NCBI GenBank assembly: GCA_951812955.1
Contig: OX638340.1
Location: 2,656,001-2,720,000, forward strand
DNA length: 64,000 bases
Source: an uncultured Gemmatimonadota bacterium
GTDB lineage: Bacteria > JAAXHH01
Direction of reading: 5' to 3'
Shown here one piece after another: positions 6,642 through 53,435 of this stretch (positions are counted from its first letter, which is position 1; each line of letters begins with the position of its first letter). The notes beneath the pieces are model-generated. The model did not search any database and was not told where the DNA came from. It was given only the letters and a program-made list of their open reading frames with translations. Both the position numbers and the translations under genes were made by a program.

Positions 6642-8066
6642 ATGGTCAACTCCATGAAACACGTCGTCATCGTGGGCGGCGGCTTTGCCGGACTGAACGC
6701 GGCCAAGAAACTCGGCGGCCGGACCGATGTCCGCGTCACCCTGGTGGACCGGCAGAACTACCACCTGTTCCAGCCGCTCCTCTACCAGGTGGCCATGGCC
6801 GGCCTGTCGCCCGCCGATATCGCCACGCCCATACGCAGCGTGCTTGCCCGGTGCGGGAACATTTCGGTGCTGCAGGGCTCGGTCGAGCGGGTCGATCTGC
6901 AGGAACGGACCGTATCGGTGGATTTCGGCCAGCTTCAATATGATTATCTGATGCTCTGTTGCGGGTCGATCCCGAGCTATTTCGGTCACGAGGACTGGGA
7001 GGAGCACGCACCCAGCCTGAAGACGATTCCGCAGGCCACCGAGATTCGCCGGCGCCTGCTGAGTGCCTTCGAAGAAGCGGAACGGACCGACGACACTGAG
7101 CGGCGCCGGCAACTGCTGACCTTCGTCGTCATAGGCGGCGGACCCACCGGAGTGGAGCTAGCGGGCGCCATCGGCGAAATGAGCCGTTTCACCCTCGCGC
7201 GGGACTTCCGCAACATCGACACGAAACTTACCCGCGTCATCCTGATCGAATCGGGCCCGCGCATCCTCTCGATGTTCTCCGAAAAGCTGGCGTCCCGGGC
7301 GACGCGGGACCTGGAAAAGCTCGGCGTGCAGGTCTGGCCGAACACGCTCGCGACGGATATAGACGAGCATGGCGTGCAGGCGGGACCGGAACGCATCGCG
7401 TCCTCGACGGTACTCTGGGCGGCGGGCGTTCGGGGCGTTGAAATCGAGGGACAGCGGCAACAGGGCGTGGAGGCGGAGCGAGTGGGGCGCGCGGAAGCAG
7501 ACTGCGAGGGACACGTGGAGGTAGACTGCGAGGGACACGTGGAGGTAGACCGCGGTGGACGCGTGGAGACGGACCGCGGAGCGCACGTGGAGGTGGACCG
7601 CGGGGGACGCGTAGTCGTCAACGAAGACCTGAGCATCCCAGGACACCCGAACGTGTTCGTCGCGGGCGACCAGGCCTGTTTTACCCACCAGACCGGCAGT
7701 CCCCTTCCGGGCACAGCGCCCGTGGCTATCCAGCAGGGACGCTTCGTGGCACAGACTATTCGCCGCGACCTCGCGTGCAGACCGCGTGAGGCCTTTCGAT
7801 TCGTCGACAAGGGACAGATGGCGACGATCGGTCGCAGCCGTGCCATCGTGGAAATCGGTAAACTCAGATTCTCAGGCTGGTTCGCGTGGGTCACCTGGCT
7901 GGTGGTGCACGTCTACTTCCTCGTGGGTTTCAAGAACCGGCTGCTGGTCGTACTGCACTGGGCCTGGTCCTATCTGACCTTCCGCCGCGGCGCCAGGCTG
8001 ATCGTGGAGCGCGAGTGGCGTTTCGGCGGGCGCAAGGACGAGACCATGCCTGACAGGGAAGAATAA
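6642..8066 (+). CDS. ndh: Type II NADH:quinone oxidoreductase (NDH-2), carrying an unusual in-frame 5 x 8-aa tandem repeat insertion
   Basis: MVNSMKHVVIVGGGFAGLNAAKKLGG...VRVTLVDRQNYHLFQPLLYQVA is a classic NDH-2 Rossmann N-terminus. A second dinucleotide-binding region follows (FVVIGGGPTGVELAG). The ORF-track ATG at 6396 overlaps the previous gene, so the internal ATG at 6642 (or 6654) is preferred. The stop codon overlaps the next gene's start (TAATG). Confidence 0.85.
   Translation: MVNSMKHVVIVGGGFAGLNAAKKLGGRTDVRVTLVDRQNYHLFQPLLYQVAMAGLSPADIATPIRSVLARCGNISVLQGSVERVDLQERTVSVDFGQLQYDYLMLCCGSIPSYFGHEDWEEHAPSLKTIPQATEIRRRLLSAFEEAERTDDTERRRQLLTFVVIGGGPTGVELAGAIGEMSRFTLARDFRNIDTKLTRVILIESGPRILSMFSEKLASRATRDLEKLGVQVWPNTLATDIDEHGVQAGPERIASSTVLWAAGVRGVEIEGQRQQGVEAERVGRAEADCEGHVEVDCEGHVEVDRGGRVETDRGAHVEVDRGGRVVVNEDLSIPGHPNVFVAGDQACFTHQTGSPLPGTAPVAIQQGRFVAQTIRRDLACRPREAFRFVDKGQMATIGRSRAIVEIGKLRFSGWFAWVTWLVVHVYFLVGFKNRLLVVLHWAWSYLTFRRGARLIVEREWRFGGRKDETMPDREE
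7500..7619 (+). repeat. Five tandem 24-bp units inside the ndh coding region (unit consensus gacygcgrgggacrcgtggaggtn)
   Basis: Read directly from the sequence: gactgcgagggacacgtggaggta appears twice, then three related units. Translation is DCEGHVEV DCEGHVEV DRGGRVET DRGAHVEV DRGGRVVV. The last unit merges into the native NDH-2 motif RVVVNEDLSIPGHPNVFVAGD. Confidence 0.85.
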
Positions 8067-13634: not shown

Positions 13635-14033
13635 CTATTTGGAAGAAATGCGCTGCGAGGTATGGTTTGGCCCGAGTTCGACCGGTTTGCCGTGCGGCGT
13701 GTTCAGATACGCCCTTCGCCATGCGTCCTTGCGGTTCGACGCTTCCGCCTGAGACACGAGCCCGCGCGCTCTGCAGAAGCGCTCAAGGGCCCGGAGCCAG
13801 TGCCGGTAATACGTATTGCCCTGGTCGGGGTCGCCCTCCCGCTGTGCCGCACGTATCTCCTCGCTCAGCGTGGCGGCCCACTCGCCCCACGTGAAGTAAC
13901 CTTCGCCGGAGAGACGCACCGCGAGCGCGAACGCCGATGCCTCCCATGGCGCGGCGAACACCGGCGAGCCATCGTCCCCAAGCGGTATGTCTCCCAGCCC
14001 ATGCGTGACGCCGGGCAGTTGCGAGTCTGTCAC
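13635..14033 (-). CDS. Nitrile hydratase accessory/activator protein (beta-subunit homolog, P14K-like), 132 aa
   Basis: SPVFAAPWEASAFALAVRL...GYFTWGEWAATL resembles the N-terminal region of NHase beta. The size matches the ~14 kDa accessory proteins of Co-type NHases. The ATG overlaps the beta-subunit stop (ATGA). Confidence 0.6.
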   Translation of the reverse strand: MTDSQLPGVTHGLGDIPLGDDGSPVFAAPWEASAFALAVRLSGEGYFTWGEWAATLSEEIRAAQREGDPDQGNTYYRHWLRALERFCRARGLVSQAEASNRKDAWRRAYLNTPHGKPVELGPNHTSQRISSK

Positions 14034-14701
14034 GGTTCAGGCTCCAGGTACGATTCCCAGAGGTCGACGTATACGGCGCTGTTCAAGTTGGCCGATTCCC
14101 CCCACAGATCACGCCCCTCGAAGCGAACGTTGTAGAGATGCCTTCCCTCGTCCACGCCCTGGGCGCTCAGGTCTGGGTACACCTGTGACCCGTAGTGCTC
14201 CCGCACGATCCCCGTGTGGCCTCGAACATAACGCGGTGCGCGTGTGTGCCCGCTTGGGTGGCGGTTGATTGCGCGCACACGGTCGCCGGGCGTAAAGCGG
14301 GCCGGGCCGGGCGCGGGCCGGACGTAGCTCGCAGTCATGTAGGGAGCCCCCAGCACCTGTTCGGCATGCACGACCCGTTCCATGATGTATTCCGGCACGG
14401 GGGTCGCCGCCCTTCCGGTCTGCAATTCCTCTTCGGAAACGAGGCCGGACCTGACCAGTTGCTTCTGTATACCCGCGAACCAATTCTCGTAGTATGAGTT
14501 GGCGAGATATTCGGCAGGAGGCAACTGCTCCCTGTTGTGGCGGGACATGTCGATGTTCCACAGTCCCAGAAGCCCGATAAGACGGACGATGCCGTACACC
14601 CGGCTCTCCCATTCCTCGTGGAAGACCGGCTCCTCGGACTCCGGTTCAGGTTGCACCGGTCCGAACCCCTTCATCCCGCCCAGGTCGTGTACGCCCTTCA
14701 T
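14030..14701 (-). CDS. Nitrile hydratase beta subunit
   Basis: Starts [16 protein letters not shown]...[16 protein letters not shown]...[12 protein letters not shown] and ends ...[29 protein letters not shown]. Collinear with known NHase beta subunits. The ATG overlaps the alpha-subunit stop (ATGA). Confidence 0.85.
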
Positions 14702-15333
14702 GGTTTGCCGCCTTGCGCTGCCGGTTGCCGCGCCTCCTCGACTCCGATCATGGCGTTGCGCGTCACGAGTTCCATGAGTTCCTCTTCGCTCCATCCCTCC
14801 GTGCCTTCGGGTCGCTGCGGCAGCACGAGGTAGCGCATCTCAGAGGTGGAATCCCATACGCGCACCTCTTTCCGATCGGCAATCTCCGAACCGAACTGCC
14901 TGATCACGCCTCGCGGATCGATGACGGCCTGCGCTCTGTATGGCGCGGACTTGTACCAGACGGGCGGCAGGCCAAGGAGCGGCCACGGGTAGCAGGAGCA
15001 GAGCGTACAGACGACGAGGTTGTGTACGTCGTCCGTGTTTGCCACGACACGCATCTGCTCGCCCTGCGCCCCCACGTAGCCCATCGATGCGATGGCGGCA
15101 TCCGGGTCGTCAAGCAGCCACCGCCTGTACGCTTCGTCCGACCAGGCATGCGCAACGACGTGCTTGCCGTTCGCCGGACCGATCTTGTCCTGGTACAGGT
15201 CAATGAGCGCGTCCAGCGCCTCCGGATCGACGAGGCCTTTCTCCACGAGCAGTGACTCGAGCGCTTTCACGCGCAACTCGATATCCGGGGGCGGCTCCGT
15301 GTGGTCTTGATGGTGCCGGTGATCGATGGCCAT
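14698..15333 (-). CDS. Nitrile hydratase alpha subunit, cobalt-type
   Basis: The metal-binding motif [22 protein letters not shown] has the Co-type Thr/Tyr signature (C-T-L-C-S-C-Y). The downstream sequence is collinear with Pseudonocardia-type Co-NHase alpha. Confidence 0.9.
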
Positions 15334-15683: not shown

Positions 15684-16781
15684 TTACGCCTCGGTTAAAC
15701 TCAAATCCGTGATTGCTGCAATAAATCTCTCGGACACTGCTCGTGCGAGTCTGTTTTCTCGGTCATTTTCCGGATTCAAAGAAGCTACCATAAGTACAGC
15801 CTGGATAAAATAACGTAGCATGGCGAGACGGTAGTCTTTCCAGCAATCATCCAAGGTGTATCCTCTGACTCCATTGGCCTTCAGGGTTTCATGGTAGAAT
15901 TTAAGGAGTTGGCGTTCTTCGGCTTGTCGTTTTGGTGTGGTTTTTAAACATCCACCGATATACCATGCGATATCCGAAACGCCCTCTCCGCACGATACGT
16001 CCTGCCAGTCGATCACGGCGAAGCCCGGCTCTCCAAGAGAAGCACCAAAAAACACGTTCTCCAAACGAAAATCTCCGTGAACCATGGTTCTCGGCGGTTT
16101 ACCCAATTGGGATTCATTTTTTAACTTCTCGGGTAATTGTTTTCCAAATGTCTTGACTGCATCCGTCATCAAGTCTTCAGTTTTATCGGCAAAGACTGGA
16201 AAAGCTTCTTTATACTGATCAAGGATCCAATTCGAAACAGCGTCAGAATCCTTCGGCGAATTCGCCAGCCAATCAAACGCTTCGAGTCTTTTGTTTTCCC
16301 ACCAATAGGCGTGAAACCTGGCTATTTCGTGGAGAGCATGTGCCGTCTCTTTCATTGTACTTCCACTGATTTGATCTCCAACTTTCGCGGGAGCAAGGTC
16401 TTCAAGAATCCTGATGTACTTTCCATGAGTAACACTCATCGCACTGAAATAACAGAGGGGTGTGCGAAGGGGTATCTCGCTGGCAATTTGCTGATAAAAC
16501 AAAATCTCGCACTTATCTGGTGTAGGTAGACGCGTTTTTGCTCGTAGAGGCTCATCTGGTGCATGTAGTTTGGCAATCAGCTTTTTGGGCAGTTCTGATT
16601 GAGGTTGATTAAAGCCAAGGTGCAAGCGTGCTAACTGTCCGTCACAAGTCAATTCTGCAATCGGCTCGATACGAAGCGAGGCTATACCGACATTCGAAAA
16701 CGTATTTGTTGAAACTAGTGCTGCGGTGAGCCAATGAGATGTTATATCCAGAGGTGTATTGGGAATACTCAAAAGAGTCAT
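15684..16781 (-). CDS. Phosphotransferase-family protein (APH/choline-kinase/EcKL-like kinase fold), 365 aa, lower GC
   Basis: Brenner motif MVHGDFRLENVFF (HxDxxxxN) and FAVIDWQD (DxD-like). HAYWWE is shared with the paralog at 56166-57263. AT-richer than the surroundings. Confidence 0.75.
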   Translation of the reverse strand: MTLLSIPNTPLDITSHWLTAALVSTNTFSNVGIASLRIEPIAELTCDGQLARLHLGFNQPQSELPKKLIAKLHAPDEPLRAKTRLPTPDKCEILFYQQIASEIPLRTPLCYFSAMSVTHGKYIRILEDLAPAKVGDQISGSTMKETAHALHEIARFHAYWWENKRLEAFDWLANSPKDSDAVSNWILDQYKEAFPVFADKTEDLMTDAVKTFGKQLPEKLKNESQLGKPPRTMVHGDFRLENVFFGASLGEPGFAVIDWQDVSCGEGVSDIAWYIGGCLKTTPKRQAEERQLLKFYHETLKANGVRGYTLDDCWKDYRLAMLRYFIQAVLMVASLNPENDRENRLARAVSERFIAAITDLSLTEA

Positions 16782-23761: not shown

Positions 23762-24650
23762 ATGGCTGATGACTCTACCACGACTGCTATACCACCAAAA
23801 CAACCGGATACGAGTAGTTCGATTGCAATTAAGTGGCTTCATTCCAAGCTTGTGGAGATTGAAGACCATACATGCATGGATGCGTTAACGATATTTGGTC
23901 CCATAACGGAAACAGTAGATCATCGAGTCAGGTTGGCGATCGAGAGTTTACCGAATCACCGCAACGGCTTGTTGGTCATTATCGATACACCCGGTGGAAT
24001 TGTAGAGGTAGCCGAACGTATTGTAACCACTATCAGGCATTACTACAAAGAGGTCAAGTTTCTCATACCTGATAAAGCGATGTCAGCAGGTACGGTTCTG
24101 GTGATGTCTGGAGATGCGATATTGATGGATCACTTTTCTTGTTTAGGCCCAGTTGATCCACAGTTGTATATCGAAGGCAAACCAATCCCGACGTCTGTCC
24201 TTTCTTATCTTGAACAATATGAACGATTTGTTCAAAAATCCATGGAAGGTACCTTGACGAGTGCTGATTTGGTTCTGCTTCAAAAGCTTGACGCTGCTGA
24301 CTTACGACAGTACGAACTGGCGGCCGAGTTATCTGTGCGCCCGTGATTGGCTTGTTCGGTATAAATTCAAGGATTGGTCCAAGCACAGTTCCACAGGGAA
24401 CACGGTTTCAAAAGAGGAAAAAACAATCCGTGCCGAAGAAGTTGCGAGAGCGCTTAATGATCAGGAAAGATGGGGTACCCATGGAAGGGGAATAAACCGA
24501 GAAGTTCTTGTCAAATTAAAGCTCAAGATTGATAATTTGGAATCCGATACTGAATTAAGTAGTCTAACAAAAGAGTATTTCTGGTTTTTTAGAGACTTAG
24601 CATTCAAAGAGGAGTCGCAAAGTCTTGTACACAACCGGTTATTCATCTGA
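23762..24650 (+). pseudogene. SDH/S49-type Clp-fold serine protease, disrupted by a -1 frameshift near 24325-24335 (N-terminal part 23762-24346; C-terminal part continues in the +1 frame to 24650); low-GC island 1
   Basis: The N-terminal frame has IIDTPGGIVEVAERIVTTIR...AMSAGTVLVMSGDAILMDHFSCLGPVDPQ (oxyanion and Ser nucleophile context of ClpP/SppA-class proteases). The second frame (SYLCARDWLVRYKFKDW...GTHGRGINREVL) aligns to the C-terminus of the intact paralog at 35429-36433 (VKSWLESYMFKGM...KSHSRHIPREEL). Confidence 0.55.
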
Positions 24651-25015: not shown

Positions 25016-26065
25016 TCATCCACTCCTCACCCACTCCAGATCGAACCGGACCAACTTGATCGTCTCGTAGGGATGATCTTCTCCCCGTTCATAGAGGCAG
25101 GCGACGGTACCGTCTGGAAGCACGGCGAGGGATGAATAGGCGGACGGCCCGGGATGCAGCACCTTTTCACGTGGCCAGGATCCGCCGGCTTCATCGGAAA
25201 GTCTCACGGTCAGGTTACACCGCTCGTCCCGGCTGGCCGGATTCGAGAACAGCAGGCGGTCGCCCGCGCCGGGATACCGGACGAGGGCCGCCTGGCAGAT
25301 CGGTTCGATCAGCGTTTCGTCGTGGCGCTGGTTACGCCACGTCATCCCGCCGTCTCCGCTGACGGCGAACTGCCTGGTGCGCAAGGCCCGGTCGTAATTT
25401 CGCATGTTGAGCAGGACGTCGCCGTTTTCCAGCTCGGTGACGCAGCATTCGTTGACCTGGTCTTGCAAAGTCGTGCCGCCCATCCGCCAGGTTTCCCCAT
25501 GGTCTTCGCTGTATATGACATGAGAATAGTAGCGTTTGGTGCTTGCCTCTATGTGGTCGCAGGGTATCAGCATCCGGCCCGACGATAGCTGAATTCCGTT
25601 GCCCGGTCCGGTGGCGTACCACGTCCAGTCCGCGCGCTTCGCGGTGGAGGTGATATCCCGCGGTTCGCGCCACGTGCGGCCGTCGTCTTCGCTGGCCGTG
25701 ACCCAGACGGTCCGTGAGCCCTGGCTCGTCCCCTCGATGATCTCGGATTCGCGGTCGATCCCCATGTTGTGGGTCATGAGCAGCCATACTTTCCCGGTCT
25801 CGCCGTCTACCACCGGACAGGGATTGCCGCAGGTATTCCCTGCGTCCGCCCAGACCAGCTCCTGGTCCGACCAGGTGCGCCCGCCGTCTTCGCTCCGCTT
25901 CACCAGCATGTCGATATCGCCGGTGTCGCTTCGGCTGCTCCTCCGGCCTTCGCAGAAGGCGAGGACCGTACCCCGGGTTGTCGCGATGATCGCTGGAATG
26001 CGGTAGGTATCGTAACCTTCCGTGCCGCTGGTCCAGATATCGGATTGTTTACAGGAGCCGCTCAT
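25016..26065 (-). CDS. Exo-alpha-sialidase (GH33, BNR/Asp-box repeat)
   Basis: YRIPAI (sialidase RIP motif) plus four Asp-boxes: SEDGGRTW, SEDDGRTW, SEDHGETW and SGDGGMTW. Confidence 0.85.
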   Translation of the reverse strand: MSGSCKQSDIWTSGTEGYDTYRIPAIIATTRGTVLAFCEGRRSSRSDTGDIDMLVKRSEDGGRTWSDQELVWADAGNTCGNPCPVVDGETGKVWLLMTHNMGIDRESEIIEGTSQGSRTVWVTASEDDGRTWREPRDITSTAKRADWTWYATGPGNGIQLSSGRMLIPCDHIEASTKRYYSHVIYSEDHGETWRMGGTTLQDQVNECCVTELENGDVLLNMRNYDRALRTRQFAVSGDGGMTWRNQRHDETLIEPICQAALVRYPGAGDRLLFSNPASRDERCNLTVRLSDEAGGSWPREKVLHPGPSAYSSLAVLPDGTVACLYERGEDHPYETIKLVRFDLEWVRSG

Positions 26066-26164: not shown

Positions 26165-28120
26165 TCAGTTGAATATGATGTGCCCCGTTATGCCCGTCAA
26201 TCCATCTATGATGACCCATAGGCCTGCGCTGACGAACTCGCCGAGAATCAGCCCCAGGAAGAAGGGCAGCATCTTCCGATAGATGTCGATCCCACCGTAC
26301 TTGAGGATGAGTCCCTTGATCATCCAGGCGAGGAATATGGAAAACCACGCGGTGAGGAGCGGGGCGGAGGCGCCAACGGGAAATCCGATGAAATGGAGGG
26401 GCCACCAGATGAACTTCTGCCTCACGTACATAAGCGCCCACATGATGGTAGCGCCCAGACCGAAGAAGAACCATCGCCCGGCGGGTTCGGACGTGGAGGT
26501 GATGGTGGTCGCATAGTAGCTGAACCGGTTCTGCTGAAGCTCTCCGAAGAACTGCCAGTTGAGGTTGATGCCGCCGTGTTCATAGGCCAGGTACATGACC
26601 GTGTAGATCGAGCTGGCCAGGCTGCACAGGATGGCCAGGCCGATGGCCGCGGTGAGCCAGCGCTGGTTCCGGATCTTCGCCGTATCGGCCAGTTTCAGGC
26701 CGTTGACCATTGAGGGCATGATGAGCGTTCGGGTGTGGGTGAACCAGAACTTGGTCAATCCGATGGCCACCAGGTTGCGCGCGCCGACGAAGGGGCCGGT
26801 GAATCCGTGGATCATGAACTCCTGGGGATTGAAGGTCTCCGCGAAGATCACGCCCCCTTCCGCCACGATCCGCGCGAAGCCGACGTAGACCGCGAGTACC
26901 AGGATCAGCAGAATGATGGCCAGCCAGGCGGAGAGGCCGATCATCCATAGCCAACCGAGCAGGAACAGGACGCCCAGTCCCCCGCCGATCACGGCGAAAC
27001 GGTAGGAAAGGCATTCGTTGGAGTCGTCCGGCTCGCCGCCTCCGCGGAACGCCTTGCCCAGGATCTCGCGGATATGCGCCCGGGCCAGCCAGAGACTGAA
27101 CAGGGCGAGGACCATCAGCGCGCCGAACATCTGGTATTCACCCGGCAAGGTGGTACTGCCCGCCAGGTCCACGCCGAAGCTCGCGTTTACCAGGTTTTGC
27201 AATCGCCCGATGAGAAAGAAGAGCCACAGGCTGAATGAAATCTCGAGACTGAGCAGATAGGCGAAGCCCACCAGCGGGAACGACAGGTTGATGGGCAGCA
27301 CCAGCTGGTTGTTGAAGAGCCCGATGGTCTCCTGGAAGTAAATTGTCGGGAAAAAGTAGATATAGTTGTGTACGGCGTTCCAGGCGTTGATCAGGAAGGG
27401 AATGGCGAACCCCGCCCACATGATCCGGTTCCGGAAGAACGACGCAAGGCGGGAACTCGACCCATCCTCTCCCGGATCGATCATCTCGGCGGGCAGCTTG
27501 ACCAGGGGGAAGACGAGACGTTCCCGTTCCACCCATTGCTTGCGCAGGATTACGGTGATGCAGAACACCACGAAATATAGCACCAGGACGAAACTCAGCC
27601 AGGCGGCCAGGGGTACGGCCCATTCGCCCCAGGGGATGCTCCCGCCCCGGGGCAGGCCTTCGAAGAACGATCGCACCGCCTCGGAGTCCTGGGGCATCAG
27701 CCAGGGCTCGACATGGGGCCCCACGGTCTCGAGCCAGCGGTTCTCCGGCGTGGCGTAGTACATGGAGGCCATGGCCGGCAGGAGGACCTCGGTCAGGCCG
27801 TAAGACGGGATGGCCGACGCGATGAGCGACATGATGTAGACGACGGCCAGTTCGCCCTGCGTGAGCGCGTGGCCCGGCGACCAGGTCCGCAGCAGCGTGT
27901 TCACGATTCCGACGAGGACGGCAAAGAGGAAGACCACGCCGATTGGGGTGAAGTTGCTGCCCAGGTACGATCCCTGGATGATCATATTGGAATAGGGATC
28001 GGCGATACCCAGGATCAACGAGCAGGCCATCCCCACGGCCACGGCGCGAGGGGTGACCATCTCCCTCGGCGTAGATACGTGATGTTCATCCCGGGATGTA
28101 ACTGGACGGGGGACCGACAT
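26165..28120 (-). CDS. Large polytopic membrane protein of unknown function (651 aa); paralog 1 of 3
   Basis: At least 12 predicted TM helices. Shares length and conserved blocks (TPRAVA..., ATPEN(R/Q)W, YYWGLP, PIPW, ERL(V/S)(F/Y)PL) with 42952-44907 and 44998-46953. Lies immediately upstream of the sialidase gene. Confidence 0.65.
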   Translation of the reverse strand: MSVPRPVTSRDEHHVSTPREMVTPRAVAVGMACSLILGIADPYSNMIIQGSYLGSNFTPIGVVFLFAVLVGIVNTLLRTWSPGHALTQGELAVVYIMSLIASAIPSYGLTEVLLPAMASMYYATPENRWLETVGPHVEPWLMPQDSEAVRSFFEGLPRGGSIPWGEWAVPLAAWLSFVLVLYFVVFCITVILRKQWVERERLVFPLVKLPAEMIDPGEDGSSSRLASFFRNRIMWAGFAIPFLINAWNAVHNYIYFFPTIYFQETIGLFNNQLVLPINLSFPLVGFAYLLSLEISFSLWLFFLIGRLQNLVNASFGVDLAGSTTLPGEYQMFGALMVLALFSLWLARAHIREILGKAFRGGGEPDDSNECLSYRFAVIGGGLGVLFLLGWLWMIGLSAWLAIILLILVLAVYVGFARIVAEGGVIFAETFNPQEFMIHGFTGPFVGARNLVAIGLTKFWFTHTRTLIMPSMVNGLKLADTAKIRNQRWLTAAIGLAILCSLASSIYTVMYLAYEHGGINLNWQFFGELQQNRFSYYATTITSTSEPAGRWFFFGLGATIMWALMYVRQKFIWWPLHFIGFPVGASAPLLTAWFSIFLAWMIKGLILKYGGIDIYRKMLPFFLGLILGEFVSAGLWVIIDGLTGITGHIIFN

Positions 28121-29204: not shown

Positions 29205-29315
29205 CCGATTCCGTTTAATCGAGTTTTGCTTGTCATGATCGCGCCGGCCGGGTTATTATACCGTTCTGACTTTCGCAATCACAGGATACTCAATCTACAA
29301 CAAAGAGGTCGACCC

Positions 29316-30476
29316 ATGCCAGTTACCCGCCGCGCTTTCCTGGAAACCTCCGCCCTCGCGTTGACCGGTCTGGCCGCGTCCGCGAAGGCACACGCCGACA
29401 CTGCACCCCAGGATACGAGTTCTGTCCTCGCTCCGCCGACGGTAGTCGCGTCGCGTAACGGTATTCGCGGCGTCAGGAAGGCCTACGAGATGATGACGCA
29501 GGACCAGGCCGACCCACTCGACGCGGTCATCGCCGGCGTGAACATCCAGGAGCTGGACCCCAATGACCAGTCCGTAGGGTACGGGGGCCGTCCCAACGCG
29601 GACGGTGTCGTTACCCTGGACGCATCCGTCATGCACGGACCCACCCGGCGGGCCGGTTCGGTCGCCGCGCTGGAGGACATAGCCTCGGCGTCGTTGGTGG
29701 CCAAGGCGATCATGGACTATACCGATCACATCATGCTGGTCGGAAAAGGCGCGAAGCGCTTTGCCCTCGGCCTGGGATTCAAGGAACAGGACCTGTTGTC
29801 CGAGGAGAGCAGGCAGGACTGGCTGCGCTGGCGGTCCCAGCTCAGTCCGGACGACGACTGGCTGGACCATGAGGACGACATCGTGATCGATCGGCCGGGC
29901 GGCACGATCAACATGTGCGGGGTGGACGCCAACGGCGACATCGGCAGCGTAACGACCACGAGCGGCCTGTCCTGGAAGATCCCGGGCCGCGTGGGCGACA
30001 GCCCCATAATCGGTACGGGGCAGTACTGCGACAACGACGTGGGCGCTGCCGGGTCCACGGGCCGAGGCGAAGCGAACATCAAGGTATGCGGGGCCTTTCT
30101 GACCGTGGAATTCATGCGGCAAGGCAAGTCACCCCAGGAAGCCTGTCTGGCTACGCTCGAGCGGGCCGTGGCCATGACGGAGGACCGGCTGCTGGACGGC
30201 AAGGGCCGCCCCCTATTCAGCCTGAACTTCTACGCCGTGTCCAAGGACGGCCGGTTCGGCGGGGCGACCATGTACCAGTACCCGGACGAGTATCTCGAGG
30301 TGCTGCCGGGACGGGGCAATTACGCCGTGGCCAACGCGGATGGCGCCCGCCACGTGCCTCTACAGTACGTGTACGACCAGACGCAGCTTCCCGGATCGCT
30401 GAAGGACCGGATGATGGAGCGCGTGGAGCGGATCAGGAAGGAACGAGCCGAGATGGAAAACCAGGAGAACCAATAG
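29316..30476 (+). CDS. N4-(beta-N-acetylglucosaminyl)-L-asparaginase (glycosylasparaginase; Ntn-hydrolase) with a Tat signal peptide
   Basis: MPVTRRAFLETSALALTGLAASAKAHA is a twin-arginine signal. GGTINMCGVDANGDIGSVTTTSGLSWKIPGRVGDSPIIGTGQY closely parallels the aspartylglucosaminidase autoproteolytic and catalytic Thr region. The track ORF start at 29226 is an N-terminal over-extension. Confidence 0.8.
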   Translation: MPVTRRAFLETSALALTGLAASAKAHADTAPQDTSSVLAPPTVVASRNGIRGVRKAYEMMTQDQADPLDAVIAGVNIQELDPNDQSVGYGGRPNADGVVTLDASVMHGPTRRAGSVAALEDIASASLVAKAIMDYTDHIMLVGKGAKRFALGLGFKEQDLLSEESRQDWLRWRSQLSPDDDWLDHEDDIVIDRPGGTINMCGVDANGDIGSVTTTSGLSWKIPGRVGDSPIIGTGQYCDNDVGAAGSTGRGEANIKVCGAFLTVEFMRQGKSPQEACLATLERAVAMTEDRLLDGKGRPLFSLNFYAVSKDGRFGGATMYQYPDEYLEVLPGRGNYAVANADGARHVPLQYVYDQTQLPGSLKDRMMERVERIRKERAEMENQENQ

Positions 30477-30486
30477 AGGGTTTCAT

Positions 30487-31282
30487 GGTACTGAATGACC
30501 AGCAGATCGCCGCGTTCGAGGAATCGGGCTACCTGTTCTTTTCCGGATTACTCGACGAAGAGGAAGTGAAGACGCTGCAGGAGGCGGTTCCGGAAGTGCT
30601 AAGCCGCCAGGGACCCGAGGTGGTACGGGAGAAGGACGATCCCACGGCCGCCCGGCTGGCTTTCGGAGCGCATACCTATTCCGAGCCCTTCGGACGCCTG
30701 GCGCGGCTTCCCCGGCTGATGGACCCGGTCCGCCAGTTGGTGGGAGACGAGGTCTATCTCCACCAGACTCGCATGAATCCCAAGCAGGGCTTCGGAAGCG
30801 GGGCATCGTGGACGTGGCACCAGGATTATCCATCGTGGTACAAGGTGGACGGCATGCCCGAACCGAATTGCATCATGGCGTCGGTATTCATCGACGACTG
30901 CACGCCGGTCACATCTCCGCTCATGATCATTCCGGGGTCCCACCGATGGGGGCTGCTAAACTCGGAACTCCACGCTGACGCCAAAGGCCGGGGTTATCAC
31001 CTGTTTAACATCGACCGACCGACCCTGGAGCAGCTGGCCGACGAGCACGGCATCGAGCCGCTGATCGGCCCGGCGGGCTCGGTCGCCCTGATCCACAGCA
31101 ACATCGTCCACGGCTCTGCCGACAACGTATCGCCCTGGCGCAGGGCCATCTTCTACCTGATCTACAACGCGGTCGGCAACGCGTGCACTCGAGAGGTCCG
31201 GCCCTGGTACCAGAATAACCGGGACTTCACGCCCCTGGAACCGATCGAAGACGACGGGTTGCGGGTCCTCTCGACAGCCTGA
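30487..31282 (+). CDS. Phytanoyl-CoA dioxygenase (PhyH)-family Fe(II)/2-oxoglutarate dioxygenase, ectoine-hydroxylase-like
   Basis: WTWHQDYPSWYKVDGMPEP resembles the EctD signature (WHSDFETWH-EDGMP). ...LIHSNIVHGSADN has the distal His. The track ORF 29915-31282 is an over-extension; the ATG at 30487 follows the previous gene's stop. Confidence 0.7.
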
Positions 31283-35428: not shown

Positions 35429-36433
35429 TTGCCAATCTGGAGCGAAATCCTTAAAGAGTTGACACCGACACAAAATGGACTTCCAGTTGATTTTGATGGC
35501 GTTCGAAGGAAATATCTACTGAAACTCCATCAGCACACGGAACGGAATGTAATTCTGTACGCCTCAGGATGGCTTCAAGGGGAAGCCCCTCCTGCGCTTG
35601 TTTCAATAAATGATGAAGACATACAGGCGTTCATGGAAGTTAGTCACGGTCTACATGGAGATCAGCTCGATCTGATCCTACATAGCCCCGGAGGTTTTCC
35701 CGAAGCAGCCGAAGCGATCGTTGCGTATCTGAGGTCTCGATTTTCTCATATAAGAGTAATTGTTCCACAACTCGCAATGTCGGCAGCAACTATGATAGCA
35801 TGTGCTGCCGATAAGATCGTGTTAGGCAAGCATTCATTTCTCGGTCCTACTGATCCTCAGATAATGCTGGCAACCCCTCTAGGTGTGCGTTCAGTACCGG
35901 CTCAGTCTGTCCTGGATCAGTTTGATCGGGCCAAGAAGGAATGTTCCGACCCAGCCAAATTGTCGGCTTGGTTACCGATGTTAAGTCAATATGGTCCGGA
36001 TTTACTGGTTCAATGTGAGACCGCGTTAGAAATGTCTAAAGTGCTAGTGAAGTCTTGGTTGGAATCGTACATGTTTAAAGGGATGGATGATCGTAAATCA
36101 AGGGCGGAAAACGTCTCGACGTGGCTCGCTGATCACATGGAGTTCAAAAGCCACAGTCGACACATACCACGCGAAGAACTTGAAGACCACCAGTTGTCGA
36201 TATCTAGGTTGGAAGAAGATACGATATTGCAGGACATGAGCCTTTCAGTGTTTCATGCAACTACTCATACCTTTTCCGGCACCCCCGCTGTAAAGATCGT
36301 CGAGAACCATACAGGTCGTGCATTCATAAAACAAAATGTTACTCAACCGGTGCAGGTTGCCATGCAGCCAGTCCAGTCGATAGAAGTTGCACCAGTACCA
36401 CTAGTAATGCCCGAACATAGTGCCGATAGTTGA
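35429..36433 (+). CDS. SDH/S49-type Clp-fold serine protease (intact, 334 aa)
   Basis: LILHSPGGFPEAAEAIVAYLRSRF...LAMSAATMIACAADKIVLGKHSFLGPTDPQ has the ClpP/SppA-class catalytic Ser context. Low GC. Inserted between the PCuAC and SCO1 genes. Confidence 0.65.
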   Translation: MPIWSEILKELTPTQNGLPVDFDGVRRKYLLKLHQHTERNVILYASGWLQGEAPPALVSINDEDIQAFMEVSHGLHGDQLDLILHSPGGFPEAAEAIVAYLRSRFSHIRVIVPQLAMSAATMIACAADKIVLGKHSFLGPTDPQIMLATPLGVRSVPAQSVLDQFDRAKKECSDPAKLSAWLPMLSQYGPDLLVQCETALEMSKVLVKSWLESYMFKGMDDRKSRAENVSTWLADHMEFKSHSRHIPREELEDHQLSISRLEEDTILQDMSLSVFHATTHTFSGTPAVKIVENHTGRAFIKQNVTQPVQVAMQPVQSIEVAPVPLVMPEHSADS

Positions 36434-37142: not shown

Positions 37143-39545
37143 CTAATGCTCGCGCCGCAGCGCGTCCACCGGGTTCATCGTGGCGGCCTGAAGGGTCTGG
37201 GTACTCACCGTGATCCAGGCGATGAGCAGTCCGAGCAGGCCCGCGGCGGGGAACAACAGCAGCGAGATCTCGGTGTGATAGGCGTACTGCCGAAGCCACT
37301 GCTGCGTGACGAAGTAGGCCGCTGGCCAGGCGATGACGTTCGCAATTACCACGAGGATGGTGTATTCCCTTGAAAGTAGCAAGACGAGTTGCCGCGCCGA
37401 CGCGCCCAGGGCCTTCCGGATTCCCACCTCCCTGGTGCGCTGTTTCGCCGTGAAGACCGCAAGGCCGAACAGTCCGAGGCACGCCGTAAAGACCGCCAGC
37501 CCGGCAAACATGGTGACGAGCCGTCCCAGCAACTGATCCGAACGATACAGGCGTTCCACGTCCTGGTCGAGGAACGAATATACGAAGGGGATATCCGGCG
37601 TGGACGCCTTCCACATGGCTTCCAGGTCCCTCAAGGTTCCGCCGGGATCGCCGGGAACGAACCGCACGGCCCAGTAGCCGGAACCCCCGAAGGTGAAGAT
37701 TACCGGATCGATCCGCTCGTGGAGGCTCCTGAGGTGGAAGTCGCCCACCACCCCGACGACCTGCATCTCGCTGTTCCCCATTTTTACGAACTGATCCATG
37801 GCTTCTTCGGGCGATCCCCATCCCAGTCGACGGACCGCCTCCTCGTTCAGGAGACTTCCGGTCGATCTCCCCCATCCTCCTCCATCTGGGTCCTCGACCC
37901 ATTCGAAATCTCTTTCAAAGGATATGTCGCGTCCGACAAGCGACTCGAGCCCGAGCGTCCGTACAAGACCGCCCTCGGTATGGATGTGTTGCATCTCGAC
38001 CGTCCCCGCCGCCGGGTCGTCTACGCGGCCCACGGGCAGGATCGGCAGTCTCCCCCGGCCGGCCGCTCGTCCGGGCATGTAGTTCGCCCCGGCAACGCTG
38101 ACTACCCCGGCGTGCTGTGGGTAACGATCACGGATCATGTCGAAGTCCATGCCCTCGAGGTCGGGCAGGATCACCACGTGTTCCTTCTCGAATCCCAGGT
38201 GTTTCTCCCGCATGTACTCCAGCTGCTGGTAGACGGTTCCCGTGCCGAACATCAGCAGGATGGCCAGGGAGAATTGCATGACCACGAGGGCTTTTCGCAG
38301 GGTTGCGGCGCCGGTACCCGAAAGTCCGCGAAAGATCGCAACGGGACTGATCCGGGACAGCAGCAGGGCGGGGTAGGCGCCGGCGAGGACGCCCGCCGTG
38401 AGGATAATAGCCGTGCCGCCCAGAATTGACCACGGTTCGAGCGAAGGCATGGAAAGTACGTGGCCCGTCATGGACCGGAAGAGGGGCAGGACCACCCAGA
38501 CAGCGGCCAGGGCGACGAGGAACGCCACGGCACTCAGGAGTATGGTTTCACCCAGGAACTGGCGGCCGATCTGGCTTCTGGTGGCTCCTGAGACTTTGCG
38601 CATGCCGATTTCCCGGGCCCGGGAGATGGACCGGACAATCGCCAGATTCGTGAAATTCATGCAGGCAATCAGCAGGATGAAGACCGCGATGGCGATCAGC
38701 ATCCAGATGAAAGACACTTCGCCGTTTGCCTCCATCTCCAATTCCAGTTGAGAATGCAGATGGATATCGAAAAGCGGCTGCAATTCATAGGTGTGGGTAA
38801 AGGCCGTCGCCCGGACCGATGCGTCGACATGTTCCGTGAGCCGTGTCTGCAGCAGGTTGCCTATCTGTTCGGGCGAGACGCCGAGCGGCAGGAGCAGGTA
38901 GGTGTAGTACGCGCTGTTCGCCCAGTTTCTCAAAAGACCGATAGGATCGCCGCGTCCGGTCGTCGTGGCGATGGAGACGTAGAAATCGGGATGATAGTGG
39001 GCGTAAGGCGGTGGGTCTTCCATGATGGCGGTGATCGTGAAGGGAAACAGGTGGTCACCGGTGATCGTCTTGCCGATCGGGTCGGCGTCCCCGAAATACT
39101 TGCGGGCCATGGATGCGCTGATGACCATCGTATTCGGCGCCGTGAGCGCGGAGGAAGGGTTGCCGCGCACCAGGGAGACATCGAAGACTTCGAAGAGGTT
39201 GCCATCCGCCCAGTAGACCCGTTGCTCATAGAACTGCTTGTCTTCGGTGGTGAAAAGCCAGGTCCCCACGGTCGCCCGAAGGCGGAGCACTTGCTCCACT
39301 TCGGGAAGCTGCGTACCGATGAAGTCGCCCAGAATGCCGGGCGTCCGCGCCGTGCGATCCGTGACGACCCGGTATATACGGTCGCCGCGGGAGTTGTGCC
39401 GGTCGTAGCTCAACTCGTCGCGGATGTACAGCAGGATGACCAGGCAGCAGGCCATGCCGATGGCGAACCCGATGACGTTGATCGCGGCGTGGGACCTGGA
39501 CGAGAGTACGTTCCGCCAGGCGGTTAGGAGGTAGTGTCCGATCAT
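37143..39545 (-). CDS. ABC transporter permease, MacB/FtsX-type, 800 aa; paralog 4 of 4
   Basis: MIGHYLLTAWRNVLSSRSHAAINVIGFAIGMACCLVILLYIRDELSYDRHNSRGDRIYRVV... and a C-terminal ...ATMNPVDALRREH. Same architecture as the + strand paralogs. Confidence 0.85.
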   Translation of the reverse strand: MIGHYLLTAWRNVLSSRSHAAINVIGFAIGMACCLVILLYIRDELSYDRHNSRGDRIYRVVTDRTARTPGILGDFIGTQLPEVEQVLRLRATVGTWLFTTEDKQFYEQRVYWADGNLFEVFDVSLVRGNPSSALTAPNTMVISASMARKYFGDADPIGKTITGDHLFPFTITAIMEDPPPYAHYHPDFYVSIATTTGRGDPIGLLRNWANSAYYTYLLLPLGVSPEQIGNLLQTRLTEHVDASVRATAFTHTYELQPLFDIHLHSQLELEMEANGEVSFIWMLIAIAVFILLIACMNFTNLAIVRSISRAREIGMRKVSGATRSQIGRQFLGETILLSAVAFLVALAAVWVVLPLFRSMTGHVLSMPSLEPWSILGGTAIILTAGVLAGAYPALLLSRISPVAIFRGLSGTGAATLRKALVVMQFSLAILLMFGTGTVYQQLEYMREKHLGFEKEHVVILPDLEGMDFDMIRDRYPQHAGVVSVAGANYMPGRAAGRGRLPILPVGRVDDPAAGTVEMQHIHTEGGLVRTLGLESLVGRDISFERDFEWVEDPDGGGWGRSTGSLLNEEAVRRLGWGSPEEAMDQFVKMGNSEMQVVGVVGDFHLRSLHERIDPVIFTFGGSGYWAVRFVPGDPGGTLRDLEAMWKASTPDIPFVYSFLDQDVERLYRSDQLLGRLVTMFAGLAVFTACLGLFGLAVFTAKQRTREVGIRKALGASARQLVLLLSREYTILVVIANVIAWPAAYFVTQQWLRQYAYHTEISLLLFPAAGLLGLLIAWITVSTQTLQAATMNPVDALRREH

Positions 39546-39671: not shown

Positions 39672-40778
39672 TTAAGGCGCCAGCCTGTTCCAGTGGACGT
39701 CCATGGCCGTTTCGGTACCCGCGTAGTACACCACCAGGACCGTGCCGTCGGGCAGGGCTTCCGCATAGGGCAGGCCGAAGGACCACACCGAGAAGCCCAG
39801 GGCGCCCTTGGGATCTTCCTTAGGCGCCTCGTGGGTATACAGGGTCACCTCGGTTTCCGGATCGAACGTCCCGTCGATGGAAGGCGCGACGCGGGCCTTG
39901 ATGGACTGGTCGTGGAAGCGGTCCACCCACGGCAGGACGATGCGTCCGTCCGGCAGCACCGCGGGATGGGCCGCCTGGTCGGTGACGCCGATGTCTTCCG
40001 GCGCGGACCAGGTTCGCCCGCCGTCGGAGCTGACGCGGCGGTGAATGTTCAGGTAGGATTCCGTTTCGGTGTTGTAGGTCCAGGCGAACGCACCGATTCT
40101 GCCGTCCGGCGCCACGGCCGACCGCAGATCCCAGTTGTAGATCAGGCCCGTCGGATCGAACCCGATGTTCACCGGTTCACCCCAGGTCCTTCCCCCGTCC
40201 GTGGAGTGAAATGCGACGACCCGCTGGTACCATTTCGAGGTGTCGAGGTAGTGCTTGTTGGTTTCGATGGTCATGACCAGGGCGCCGTCCGGAAGTTGCA
40301 TGATTGGATTGGTCAGGCTCGCCGGTCCAATCTCCTCCGGCATGGGTACCTCGCGCCACGCCGTCCAGGTTTTTCCCCCGTCCGCGGAGTCCGCCAGGAG
40401 GATGGACATGGGCACGCAGCCCTCGGTCTCCGGATTGAAGAGTCCCGGGGCGTCAGGATAGGTTTCGCGGTCGATCCACATTGATGCGGCGATGATCCGT
40501 CCGGGCGCCAGTTCAGTCAGGTAGACGATCTTGACCGTCCCCCGGACTCCGTGAAGCGTTGGGCTTCCGAAGGGGCGTTCGGGTGCGCTCCAGGTCTTTC
40601 CGAGATCGGAGGAGCGGCTGAGTTCCACCACTTCGTCCGCGCAGTCCTTCGTCGTGCCGCTGTGCCAGGTGGCGATCAGCGTGCCGTCGGTCTTGCTAAG
40701 GACTGAGGGGAACGTGAGATTGGCCCGGTCCGTGCCGGGCGTGCTGCGGCTGAGGACGCCGGAGTCGACGATGCGCAT
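39672..40778 (-). CDS. BNR/Asp-box repeat glycoside hydrolase, sialidase-like
   Basis: Asp-boxes SSDLGKTW, SADGGKTW, STDGGRTW and SSDGGRTW. No obvious RIP motif, so sialidase specificity is uncertain. Confidence 0.75.
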   Translation of the reverse strand: MRIVDSGVLSRSTPGTDRANLTFPSVLSKTDGTLIATWHSGTTKDCADEVVELSRSSDLGKTWSAPERPFGSPTLHGVRGTVKIVYLTELAPGRIIAASMWIDRETYPDAPGLFNPETEGCVPMSILLADSADGGKTWTAWREVPMPEEIGPASLTNPIMQLPDGALVMTIETNKHYLDTSKWYQRVVAFHSTDGGRTWGEPVNIGFDPTGLIYNWDLRSAVAPDGRIGAFAWTYNTETESYLNIHRRVSSDGGRTWSAPEDIGVTDQAAHPAVLPDGRIVLPWVDRFHDQSIKARVAPSIDGTFDPETEVTLYTHEAPKEDPKGALGFSVWSFGLPYAEALPDGTVLVVYYAGTETAMDVHWNRLAP

Positions 40779-40891: not shown

Positions 40892-42883
40892 TCAGACCCG
40901 TTTGATCCCCTCGCACAGATCGATCATGGCGGAGAGGATGGATTCCGCCAGGCAGTCGATGGCTTCCCGTGTTCCCGCGATGTCTACCGAGGCCGCCGAA
41001 ACGTAGCACTTGACCGTGGGTTCGGTGCCCGACGGTCGCACGATGACCCGCGTATGTCCGGACTCAGAAAAGGTGAAGACCAGGATATCCGCGCGATCGC
41101 CGTCAACGGGCGTAGTCGTTCCCGTTCGCAGATCCTGCGCCTGGCCGCTCTGCCGGTCGATCACGCGGCAAACGGCGCGTCCGCCTATCCGCTCGGGAGG
41201 CGCTTCACGCAGCGCGGCCATCATGCCTTCGATCCTCCGTGTGCCCTCCGCGCCGGGCAGCGCGACCGACCGCTGGACTTCCCTGAAATATCCGTACGTT
41301 CGGTAGATATCGTCCAGTTCATCGCGCAGGGTGCGGTTGTCCTTCTTCGCCAGGGCGGCGAACTCGGCGAGCAGGATGCCGGTGGCAGCCTCCTTGTCCC
41401 GTATCCGGGCGTCGGCCAGATAGCCGTGGCTTTCCTCGGTACCGAACACGAAGGACATATCCGGCGGCAAGCCTTCGATCGCCGCGCCAACGTGTTTGAA
41501 ACCGATGGGCAGGTCGTCGATGACCTCCAGTCTGAAGGACCGGGCGATGATCGAGGCAAGGTCCGAGGTGACCAGCGTCTTGCAGAACAGACCCCTAGGG
41601 GGCAGCGTACCCGCCGCTTGCTTCCGGCTGAGTATGTAGTGGCAGAGGAGGACGCCGATCTGGTGACCGTTTAAACTCAGTTCTTCCGGCGGAGCTTCCC
41701 ATCCCCTGTCCGGCAGCGGCAGCGCGCACCCGATCCGGTCGGCGTCGGGGTCGCTCGCGAGCACGAGGTCCGCGCCGACTTCCGCGGCTTTTCTGAAGCC
41801 CAATTGAAAGGCCGCCGGTTTTTCGGGGTTTGCGATCCCATGGTCCAGCGTGGAGAACGCACCGTCCGGGACGACCTGCTCATCCACGTAGTGCACGTCC
41901 TCATAACCCAGCTTATCCAGTGCCGCGGCCACCGAGGTCATGCCCACGCCGTGCAGTGGGGTATACACCACACGCACGTCTCGGCCATCGGCCAGCGACA
42001 GGTCCGACAGGACGCCGATATACCCCTCGTCCAGGTCCCTGCCGATGATCCGGATCAGGCCGTTTCGGAGGCCTTCTTCGTAGTCGATCCGCCTGATCTC
42101 ACCGGCCTGCCTCATCTCTCTCGTGATGTCCCCGTCCCGGGGCGCCACCACCTGCCCCCCGTCGGGTCCGTAAACCTTGAATCCGTTGTCTTCGGGTGGA
42201 TTGTGGCTCGCGCTGATCATCACACCGGCCGCCGCCCGGAGTTCGCGGACGGCGAAGGAAAGCGCGGGGGTGGAGCGAAAACCGTCGAAGATCAGGACGT
42301 CTATGCCGTTGGCGGCCAGCACGCCGGCCGTCTCTTTCGCAAACAACTCCGAATTGCGCCGGGTGTCCCATGCCACGACGACGCCGCGCGCCCCAGCGGG
42401 ACCGCGGTGATTTTCACTAACTTGCCCATCACCGCCTTGCCCATCGCCCTCGAGCCCTGCACCGACACGTTCCCCGTCGCCATCGTCGCCCTGCCCATCG
42501 CCGCCTCGCCCATCACCTTCGCGCTCTGCACCGACGCGATCCCTGTCGCGCTCTGCACCCTCGCGATCCCCATCGCCTCTCCCCATCATCCCGGTGACAT
42601 ACCTGGCCAGTCCCTGTGCCGCCAGGCCCACGGTGTGGGTGTTGAGCCGGTTCGGCCCCGGTCCCATCCGACCTCGGATGCCGCCCGTTCCAAAGGAGAG
42701 GACCGAACCGAATGCGTCCTCCAGTTCGTCGGTGCCGCCGGCATCGATGAGGGCATGGATCTCATCCCGGTACGCCGCGAGGCCGGGCTCCGTAGACCAT
42801 AGTACCAGGGCATCCGAGGCCGCACGGGACAGGATGCCGTTTTCGGTCCAGGCGTTGATCCTGCTGACGCGTTGTTGATTCAT
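40892..42883 (-). CDS. Phosphoglucomutase/phosphomannomutase (alpha-D-phosphohexomutase family), with a ~55-aa Gly/Asp/Arg/Glu-rich low-complexity insertion
   Basis: Phosphoserine loop SASHNPPEDNGFKV. Metal loop ASDPDADR. Sugar-binding GTEESHG. Preferred start is the ATG at 42883 (MNQQRV...); the track start at 43198 is an over-extension. Confidence 0.85.
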   Translation of the reverse strand: MNQQRVSRINAWTENGILSRAASDALVLWSTEPGLAAYRDEIHALIDAGGTDELEDAFGSVLSFGTGGIRGRMGPGPNRLNTHTVGLAAQGLARYVTGMMGRGDGDREGAERDRDRVGAEREGDGRGGDGQGDDGDGERVGAGLEGDGQGGDGQVSENHRGPAGARGVVVAWDTRRNSELFAKETAGVLAANGIDVLIFDGFRSTPALSFAVRELRAAAGVMISASHNPPEDNGFKVYGPDGGQVVAPRDGDITREMRQAGEIRRIDYEEGLRNGLIRIIGRDLDEGYIGVLSDLSLADGRDVRVVYTPLHGVGMTSVAAALDKLGYEDVHYVDEQVVPDGAFSTLDHGIANPEKPAAFQLGFRKAAEVGADLVLASDPDADRIGCALPLPDRGWEAPPEELSLNGHQIGVLLCHYILSRKQAAGTLPPRGLFCKTLVTSDLASIIARSFRLEVIDDLPIGFKHVGAAIEGLPPDMSFVFGTEESHGYLADARIRDKEAATGILLAEFAALAKKDNRTLRDELDDIYRTYGYFREVQRSVALPGAEGTRRIEGMMAALREAPPERIGGRAVCRVIDRQSGQAQDLRTGTTTPVDGDRADILVFTFSESGHTRVIVRPSGTEPTVKCYVSAASVDIAGTREAIDCLAESILSAMIDLCEGIKRV
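42410..42600. repeat. Imperfect in-frame repeats inside the phosphohexomutase gene (encode RGDGDREGAERDRDRVGAEREGDGRGGDGQGDDGDGERVGAGLEGDGQGGDGQ)
   Basis: The plus-strand sequence shows repeated ctgcccatcgcc / ctgcaccgac / cgcgctctgcacc blocks. The translated insertion sits between the conserved N-terminal helix and the VVVAWDTRRNS segment. Confidence 0.6.
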
Positions 42884-53396: not shown

Positions 53397-53435
53397 TTCG
53401 GGGTCGTGAACAAACTGGTGAATGCTGGATATGCA

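Follow-up and report, generated by a model that had tools for sequence, protein, structure and literature searches.

Three DUF6785/DUF6784 membrane proteins of a Gemmatimonadota bacterium have the predicted fold of OPT/YSL transporters and are candidate importers of peptides and of a sialylated substrate

The closest described counterparts of the proteins considered here belong to the OPT family (TC 2.A.67; PF03169; PDB 7WSR/7WST), whose members have 16 (or 17) transmembrane segments derived from internal duplications and, coupled to protons, take up oligopeptides, glutathione or metal-chelate complexes. The barley transporter HvYS1, a member of this family that had no structural homologue at the time when it was solved, consists of a core and a scaffold domain, both formed by inverted repeats, with a large central cavity; it operates by proton symport, for which an elevator mechanism has been proposed (PMC9691689). 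For the canonical bacterial OPT members peptide substrates were predicted from gene context, and for one Bacteroides subcluster the uptake of oligosaccharides (Gomolplitinant and Saier, PMC3061005). Here we analyze a stretch of 64,000 nucleotides (nt) from an uncultured Gemmatimonadota bacterium (contig OX638340.1, positions 2,656,001 to 2,720,000; hereafter the window), which encodes three polytopic membrane proteins of exactly 651 codons each, the paralogues A, B and C. In our judgement they probably represent a large uncharacterized sister family of OPT and act as proton-coupled, elevator-type importers, of peptides in the case of B and C and of a sialylated substrate in the case of A.

26165-28120, minus strand: paralogue A, 651-residue DUF6785+DUF6784 membrane protein with a predicted OPT/YSL transporter fold.
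42952-44907, minus strand: paralogue B, candidate DUF6785+DUF6784 transporter (Pfam E 5.5e-95), an old tandem duplicate of C.
44998-46953, minus strand: paralogue C (Pfam E 4e-94), with a start codon that overlaps the stop codon of an M32 carboxypeptidase gene (ATGA).

All three proteins exceed the gathering score of PF20581 (DUF6785) with 316-454 bits (cut-off 25; E 1e-94 to 1e-136), covering profile positions 1-498 of 498, and are matched in their C-terminal part by PF20580 (DUF6784; 69-104 bits, cut-off 26.4, E 1e-19 to 1e-30). These two domains were the only Pfam matches at E up to 0.1, with no catalytic domain among them, and no NCBIfam model matched A, B or C. The family is thus already named in Pfam, but its entries carry no function, and a literature search found no paper naming DUF6785, DUF6784, PF20581 or PF20580; what is added by the present analysis is the fold and the gene context, with its links to peptidases and a sialidase. 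An earlier note on this DNA, made from the sequence alone, had described three homologous 651-residue polytopic open reading frames (ORFs) of unknown family at these positions. Their homology stands (A and B align end to end with 28% identity, E 6e-74; B and C with 75% and no gaps), while the family now has both a Pfam name and a likely fold.

The same note had taken B and C for a recent duplication with about 85% nucleotide identity. The actual DNA identity is 77.8%, and the orthologues mark the duplication as old, because distinct B-type and C-type proteins exist in other genomes: P0121-P0141 are 81-94% identical to B, whereas P0143 is 93% identical to C (76% to B) and P0146 is 83% identical to C. 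Single-copy outgroups are ~60% identical to B and C alike. Both copies are under purifying selection, since the differences between them (119/71/244 by codon position) concentrate at third positions. The equal length of A, B and C says little, as the lengths of the whole family bunch at 645-655 residues and 651 is common among orthologues of both types.

A family profile built from an alignment of 60 members (alignment A1) matched 7,981 representatives of 50%-identity protein clusters at E ≤1e-3 and 2,951 at E ≤1e-30, and at least 598 DUF6785 loci were found in data holding one genome per species. The best 80 of these loci come mostly from Gemmatimonadota and Latescibacterota, with a minority from Armatimonadota, Planctomycetota, Handelsmanbacteria, Omnitrophota and Desantisbacteria, and genomes with several DUF6785 paralogues are frequent among them. 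Relatives of the window itself include a metagenome contig with ~96% identical DNA (MKWU01001512.1, L094) and the Gemmatimonadetes metagenome-assembled genome (MAG) APA_bin_41 (L003), whose counterpart of A is 99% identical; several related MAGs bear names of the sponge type, and this Gemmatimonadota lineage appears to include sponge-associated MAGs.

The evidence for a transport function comes from the fold. An AlphaFold2 model computed without templates on alignment A1 (predicted local distance difference test, pLDDT, 85.4; predicted template-modelling score, pTM, 0.89) shows ~14-16 membrane helices together with short broken helices. A Foldseek comparison of such a model with the PDB, which the earlier note had proposed as a check, gave significant matches only to the two HvYS1 entries 7wst and 7wsr (E 8e-9, probability 1.00, template-modelling (TM) scores 0.67/0.72), all remaining matches having E 0.03 or worse and TM scores <0.2. 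The superposition on HvYS1, a bona fide proton symporter, spans the whole protein, no other structure superposes, and the model shows the YS1-type fold of core plus scaffold domains. The HvYS1 structure was released in 2022, which we take to be later than the training data of AlphaFold2, so the match counts as an independent prediction. Hence, A, B and C are very probably transport proteins, and the fold makes secondary transport by far their likeliest function; the earlier statement that they resemble neither MFS nor ABC nor SSS proteins agrees with this.

The structural alignment with HvYS1 has an identity of only 12-13%, and an hhalign comparison of the N-terminal with the C-terminal half detected no internal repeat (probability 0.2%). 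Since no relationship is detectable at the sequence level, we call DUF6785/DUF6784 a separate family with a modelled OPT fold, outside PF03169. It differs from the OPT family in its sequence motifs (YYATPENxW, R[KR]QW[VIA][ED]xE[RK]L and WWP[LIV]H[PYF][LI]G) and in a range whose centre lies in Gemmatimonadota, Latescibacterota and further phyla, most of them uncultured, with multiple paralogues per genome.

The gene that follows A, and a further one in its vicinity, are the following.

25016-26065, minus strand: GH33 exo-sialidase catalytic domain, leaderless, 349 residues, 99 nt downstream of A (BNR_2 E 5e-41).
29226-30476, plus strand: Asparaginase_2 protein (beta-aspartyl-peptidase/glycosylasparaginase family, E 1e-56), near A and not a member of its operon.

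The first product aligns over its full length with solved bacterial sialidases (phmmer E 1e-44 to 1e-47) and has a YRIP motif and five Asp boxes. GH33 exo-sialidases are six-bladed propellers marked by an arginine triad, a nucleophile pair of Tyr and Glu, Asp boxes and the RIP motif; by these marks it qualifies as a GH33 member, with catalytic positions that are putative, being taken from motif and alignment. Its maximal ORF begins only ~20 residues before YRIP and leaves no room for a signal peptide; the sialidase is presumably cytoplasmic. All 10 of 10 aligned orthologues are likewise leaderless, keep the RIP motif and the Asp boxes and show no variation at the Arg, Asp, Glu and Tyr positions aligning with sialidase catalytic residues. 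The proposal that a membrane protein stands directly upstream of a BNR gene thus holds for A, and it also holds across most of the A orthologue group (identities are to A).

L001, L002, L003, L058, L094, L095 (92-99% identical): A, then sialidase.
L081 (78%): M28/FtsX protein, A, sialidase.
L092 (73%): M28/FtsX protein, A, sialidase (1-nt overlap).
L084/85 (71%): A, then sialidase; the flanks differ.
L091 (74%): M28/FtsX protein, A, sialidase 4.5 kb downstream past an insertion.
L082/83 (73%): M28/FtsX protein, then A; sialidase not nearby.

A metagenome scan for further orthologues of A returned four loci only. The Asparaginase_2 gene lies near A also in L001, L002, L058, L094 and L096 and is a possible functional neighbour; its top NCBIfam match, below the cut-off, is beta-aspartyl-peptidase.

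B and C stand in a longer string of genes, all on the minus strand.

48524-49819, minus strand: ATP-grasp protein of the L-amino-acid-ligase type, first in the string (ATP-grasp_4, LAL_C2, ATPgrasp_N; partial NCBIfam matches BacD and DdaF).
46950-48443, minus strand: M32 (Taq-type) carboxypeptidase, 497 residues (Peptidase_M32 over its full length, E 3e-178).
40892-42883, minus strand: phosphohexomutase (PGM/PMM family), 663 residues from an ATG 68 nt past the stop codon of B, with PGM_PMM domains I-IV.
39672-40778, minus strand: divergent BNR/Asp-box beta-propeller (BNR2), 368 residues (BNR_2 E 2e-21), without signal peptide and without RIP motif.
37143-39545, minus strand: ADOP-type duplicated FtsX/MacB permease (FtsX, MacB_PCD; TIGR03434 E 2e-80, below the family cut-off).

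In the order of transcription, the ATP-grasp gene is followed after 80 nt by M32, which overlaps C by 4 nt (ATGA) and is apparently translationally coupled to it; B comes 90 nt after C, the phosphohexomutase 68 nt after B, BNR2 after a further 113 nt and the ADOP permease after 126 nt, its place as the last member of the string being uncertain. The promoter and terminator scans gave counts at or below the shuffle expectation and are hence silent on transcription units. Within the phosphohexomutase, between its N-terminal region and PGM_PMM domain I, sits an insert of ~53 low-complexity residues rich in Gly, Asp, Arg and Glu (~42419-42577, minus strand; GDGDREGAERDRDRVGAEREGDGRGGDGQ...), which is unusual for this enzyme family.

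Relatives of this string are arranged as follows (identities are to B).

L089 (81% identical): M32 (identical 4-nt overlap), transporter, phosphomutase, BNR2.
L088 (65%): ATP-grasp, M32, transporter, then unrelated genes.
L090 (Latescibacteria, 59%): ATP-grasp, M32, Asparaginase_2, transporter.
L087 (62%): transporter overlapped by an enolase-superfamily gene and followed by homologues of DHDPS and DapB; an orthologue of BNR2 ~6 kb off.
L086 (59%): none of these neighbours.

The order ATP-grasp, M32, transporter is kept between L088, L090 and the window despite differing flanking genes, while the phosphomutase follows the transporter, among relatives, only in the close one, L089, and both BNR2 and phosphomutase are absent at L088 and L090. 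The deeply conserved partners of B and C are the M32 carboxypeptidase and the ATP-grasp enzyme, not BNR2.

Taken together, the fold and these neighbourhoods suggest that A, B and C would be secondary importers of small organic solutes in approximately the size range from tripeptides to octapeptides. B and C would import oligopeptides, which the M32 carboxypeptidase would degrade in the cytoplasm, joined in relatives by the enzyme of the beta-aspartyl-peptidase family, and the ATP-grasp ligase would act on the amino acids or peptides so released; we infer this because of the coupling to cytoplasmic exopeptidases, which is evidence of the same kind as that used for the canonical bacterial members (PMC3061005). 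A would import a small sialylated substrate, either a sialyl-oligosaccharide or, more specifically, a sialoglycopeptide, which the leaderless GH33 sialidase would desialylate inside the cell. This assignment is drawn because an exo-sialidase without a leader depends on the import of its sialoside, and no transporter other than A is consistently found beside it. In relatives the membrane-anchored M28/FtsX giant described below may generate the transported fragments outside the cell; with such a protein next door, a sialoglycopeptide becomes an appealing candidate for the substrate of A. With respect to the habitat, sponge symbionts are reported to be enriched in GH33 genes, and the sponge mesohyl to contain sialic-acid-linked residues (PMC8163846).

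The strongest competitor of this assignment of A is that all three proteins are plain oligopeptide importers and that the sialidase is merely co-regulated with A in the scavenging of host glycoproteins, its own substrate bypassing A. The OPT fold as such would suit peptides, as OPT members have mostly been predicted or shown to be peptide carriers (PMC3061005), and peptidases dominate the conserved contexts (M32, the M28/FtsX giant including its fusion to a transporter, and M42). On the other hand, the missing leader of the exo-sialidase calls for an imported sialoside; A alone among transporters is consistently its neighbour, with gaps down to the 1-nt overlap of L092 and with differing flanks; and no other candidate sialoside importer was seen beside the sialidase. 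We regard the peptide-only explanation for A as unlikely.

The reading of the earlier note, by which synteny with BNR/sialidase genes would define all three paralogues as parts of a system that takes up or processes sialoglycans or glycans, fares considerably worse. It correctly noticed a same-strand BNR gene after the membrane protein(s) in both loci, and BNR2 does have orthologues in L087, ~6 kb from the B-type transporter, and in L089, behind the phosphomutase; distant members of the family, moreover, lie near sugar-acid enzymes, sulfatases and a rhamnose mutarotase. However, only the BNR gene beside A is a recognizable GH33. The N-terminal blade of BNR2 reads LTFPSV, with no Arg-Ile-Pro; its top solved relative is the uncharacterized Dfer_1899 (5hx0, E 6e-7), and sialidases reach E 1e-6 at best; and its best BLASTP alignment with the sialidase next to A (BNR1) shows 23% identity over 196 residues (E 1e-5), with no cross-match by tblastn. 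Judged by these features BNR2 is not recognizable as a GH33 member and is not a demonstrable sialidase. Furthermore, in the second locus the phosphohexomutase, noted before as following, in fact precedes the BNR gene (C, B, phosphohexomutase, BNR), and it is M32 and ATP-grasp that accompany the B/C type (L088, L089, L090), with BNR2 and phosphomutase missing from L088 and L090. None of 76 more distant loci has a GH33 gene adjoining the transporter, and among homologues with ≤49% identity none was adjacent either, so that the pairing is absent family-wide, as the earlier note had named among possible refutations, and present within the orthologue group of A. A sialylated substrate is reasonable for A, but as the common theme of all three proteins glycan uptake is improbable.

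The L087 locus has some further traits of its own. In this locus (L087:8159-12988), from a MAG whose protein P0158 carries the NCBI label candidate division Zixibacteria, an MR_MLE gene overlaps the B-type transporter upstream, genes of the DHDPS/NAL family and DapB-like genes come after the transporter, and OCD/mu-crystallin and PhyH genes are nearby; as a set, these genes recall catabolic modules of the hydroxyproline or sialic-acid type. Genes for PhyH-family Fe(II)/2-oxoglutarate dioxygenases are present also in the window (~30515-31282, plus strand; 58523-59467, minus strand) and recur near DUF6785 genes in many loci (L084, L086, L087, L088, L089, L093), which may be a real link or may reflect no more than the commonness of such genes in these genomes.

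Beyond the orthologue groups of A and B/C, one neighbour recurs across phyla. A giant protein with an M28 peptidase and FtsX regions adjoins the transporter at 10 loci from three phyla.

L081:3290-7927 and L033:11889-16640: M28/FtsX giant (these proteins as a group have ~1,530-1,670 residues).

In L081, L082, L091 and L092 the M28-peptidase-like + FtsX protein (~1,530 residues) stands directly upstream of the A orthologue, while in Latescibacterota (L018, L019, L020, L022, L025) and Handelsmanbacteria (L033) an M28/MacB_PCD/FtsX giant stands directly downstream of the transporter. The MacB periplasmic domain is matched only faintly in L082/83 but clearly in two homologues, L033 and P0248, the latter being a 2,120-residue fusion of the M28/FtsX giant with a DUF6785 transporter. 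No homologue of the giant was found within the 64-kb window.

This recurrent adjacency, together with the fusion, could be taken to mean that A, B and C import nothing and are instead partners or subunits of FtsX/M28 envelope machines, acting as an exporter, a flippase or an acyl- or glycosyl-modifying enzyme, and the positions of some homologues between peptidyl-prolyl isomerases (PPIases) and large proteins tagged for the type IX secretion system (T9SS), as well as of the ADOP permease at the end of the locus-2 string, would fit such a role. We nevertheless think it quite improbable, with a whole protein that superposes on a proton symporter and on nothing else, no catalytic-domain matches, and a translational coupling to a cytoplasmic carboxypeptidase that fits import followed by hydrolysis. 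The import of metal chelates (nicotianamine- or siderophore-like), as in YS1/YSL, is very improbable: the sole structural match is indeed an Fe(III)-phytosiderophore transporter, and the tree of the OPT family places its prokaryotic members in the 'iron-siderophore' subdivision (PMC3061005), but HvYS1 was the only OPT structure returned by either PDB search and is hence uninformative on substrate, and no genes for siderophore or nicotianamine biosynthesis, TonB-dependent receptors or iron regulation were seen in the window or the sampled loci.

Several observations weigh against the preferred reading of A, B and C as OPT-like importers of peptides and a sialylated substrate. At the sequence level the PF03169 (OPT) profile does not match any of the three at E up to 0.1, and the family profile found nothing at E up to 10 among PDB sequences, HvYS1 included; proton coupling and the direction of transport are taken by analogy from HvYS1, and the peptide and sialoside substrates are likewise inferred. 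The A-sialidase pair is restricted to one Gemmatimonadota lineage (≥71% identity), where it could partly reflect inherited gene order, and it is not kept in L082/83; nor were nanA, nanK or nanE, the genes of sialic-acid catabolism, found in the 64-kb window. Finally, a Pfam census of operon partners over the 76 distant loci (89 partners) is heterogeneous, listing PPIases with the large T9SS-tagged proteins, TPR, TrkA/TrkH and ABC-F proteins, GFO/IDH/MocA oxidoreductases, 2-hydroxyacid dehydrogenases, aldo-keto reductases, rhamnose mutarotase, sulfatases and M42 aminopeptidase, and 26 of these loci are without any operon partner. Because the partners vary so widely, the substrates should not be generalized across the family. 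A family-wide conserved partner was sought by tblastn and phmmer with all window neighbours against 80-97 loci and rejected, as partners were confined to their own orthologue groups; this applies to BNR1, M32, ATP-grasp and the phosphomutase alike.

A bolder proposal, which we consider possible but put forward only tentatively, is that DUF6785/DUF6784 constitutes an unrecognized branch of the OPT superfamily, one that has expanded greatly and diversified past peptides. The A lineage would then possess a new route for the harvest of host sialoglycopeptides, made up of the giant extracytoplasmic M28/FtsX protein, the OPT-fold carrier and the cytoplasmic GH33 enzyme; trimming would take place outside the cell and desialylation inside, after the glycopeptide has been imported. 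B and C would have a matching glycopeptide route, in which the operon (carboxypeptidase, Asparaginase_2-family amidase, BNR propeller and phosphomutase) could handle other glycopeptides, and in some lineages the carrier may couple physically to the FtsX-type protein, as in the fusion P0248.

Some other features of the window are recorded here as observations in their own right.

495-2882 (plus strand), 4204-6567 (plus), 8066-10456 (plus), 37143-39545 (minus): four paralogous duplicated FtsX/MacB permeases of ~800 residues.
13635-15333, minus strand: nitrile hydratase beta and alpha subunit genes.
15684-16781, minus strand: EcKL/APH-type kinase ORF.
23762-24346 and 35429-36433, plus strand: paralogous ClpP-like SDH-type serine proteinase ORFs.
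53309-53397 and 53436-53509, plus strand: tRNA-Leu(taa) and tRNA-Val(gac).

The permeases are ~41% identical to each other and of the ADOP type (TIGR03434 E 2e-80, below the cut-off), with no adjoining ABC ATPase noted. The two proteinase ORFs, probably foreign DNA, lie in local GC dips, with a G+C content at third codon positions (GC3) of 0.43-0.44 versus ~0.8 elsewhere in the genome; the kinase ORF, in another GC dip, has an atypically low GC3 of 0.43. The two tRNA genes were the only Rfam and ARAGORN matches in the window. An MR_MLE gene (53598-54647) was considered as a dipeptide epimerase and rejected, since it resembles a sugar-acid (rhamnonate-type) dehydratase.

If the proposed functions hold, ~8,000 protein clusters (50% identity) now described by DUFs only would be assigned a fold and a probable mechanism. 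The phyla in which these clusters concentrate (Gemmatimonadota, Latescibacterota, Zixibacteria, Armatimonadota and Planctomycetota) are poorly understood. Their organic-matter degraders may use OPT-type secondary carriers, in several paralogues, where better-studied bacteria use ABC or MFS systems; the substrate range of the OPT superfamily, few bacterial members of which have been characterized, would broaden; and sponge symbionts would be provided with a concrete route for taking up host sialoglycoconjugates and desialylating them inside the cell.

Two known bacterial systems invite comparison. Bifidobacterium longum subsp. infantis imports intact sialylated milk oligosaccharides and then desialylates them with an intracellular sialidase. 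The logic proposed for A is the same, with a leaderless GH33 enzyme that would depend on a sialoside from the neighbouring transporter. The machinery differs: the bifidobacterium employs ABC importers with solute-binding proteins, whereas the candidate here is an OPT-fold secondary carrier, associated in relatives with an M28/FtsX membrane protein as well. In E. coli, the iaaA-gsiABCD operon encodes an isoaspartyl peptidase together with a glutathione/peptide ABC importer. A comparable association of an Asparaginase_2-family peptidase with an importer is seen in the B/C-type locus L090 and, in the window, near A; in contrast to E. coli, however, the transporter is of a different class, and the ATP-grasp and M32 genes have no place in the E. 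coli operon.

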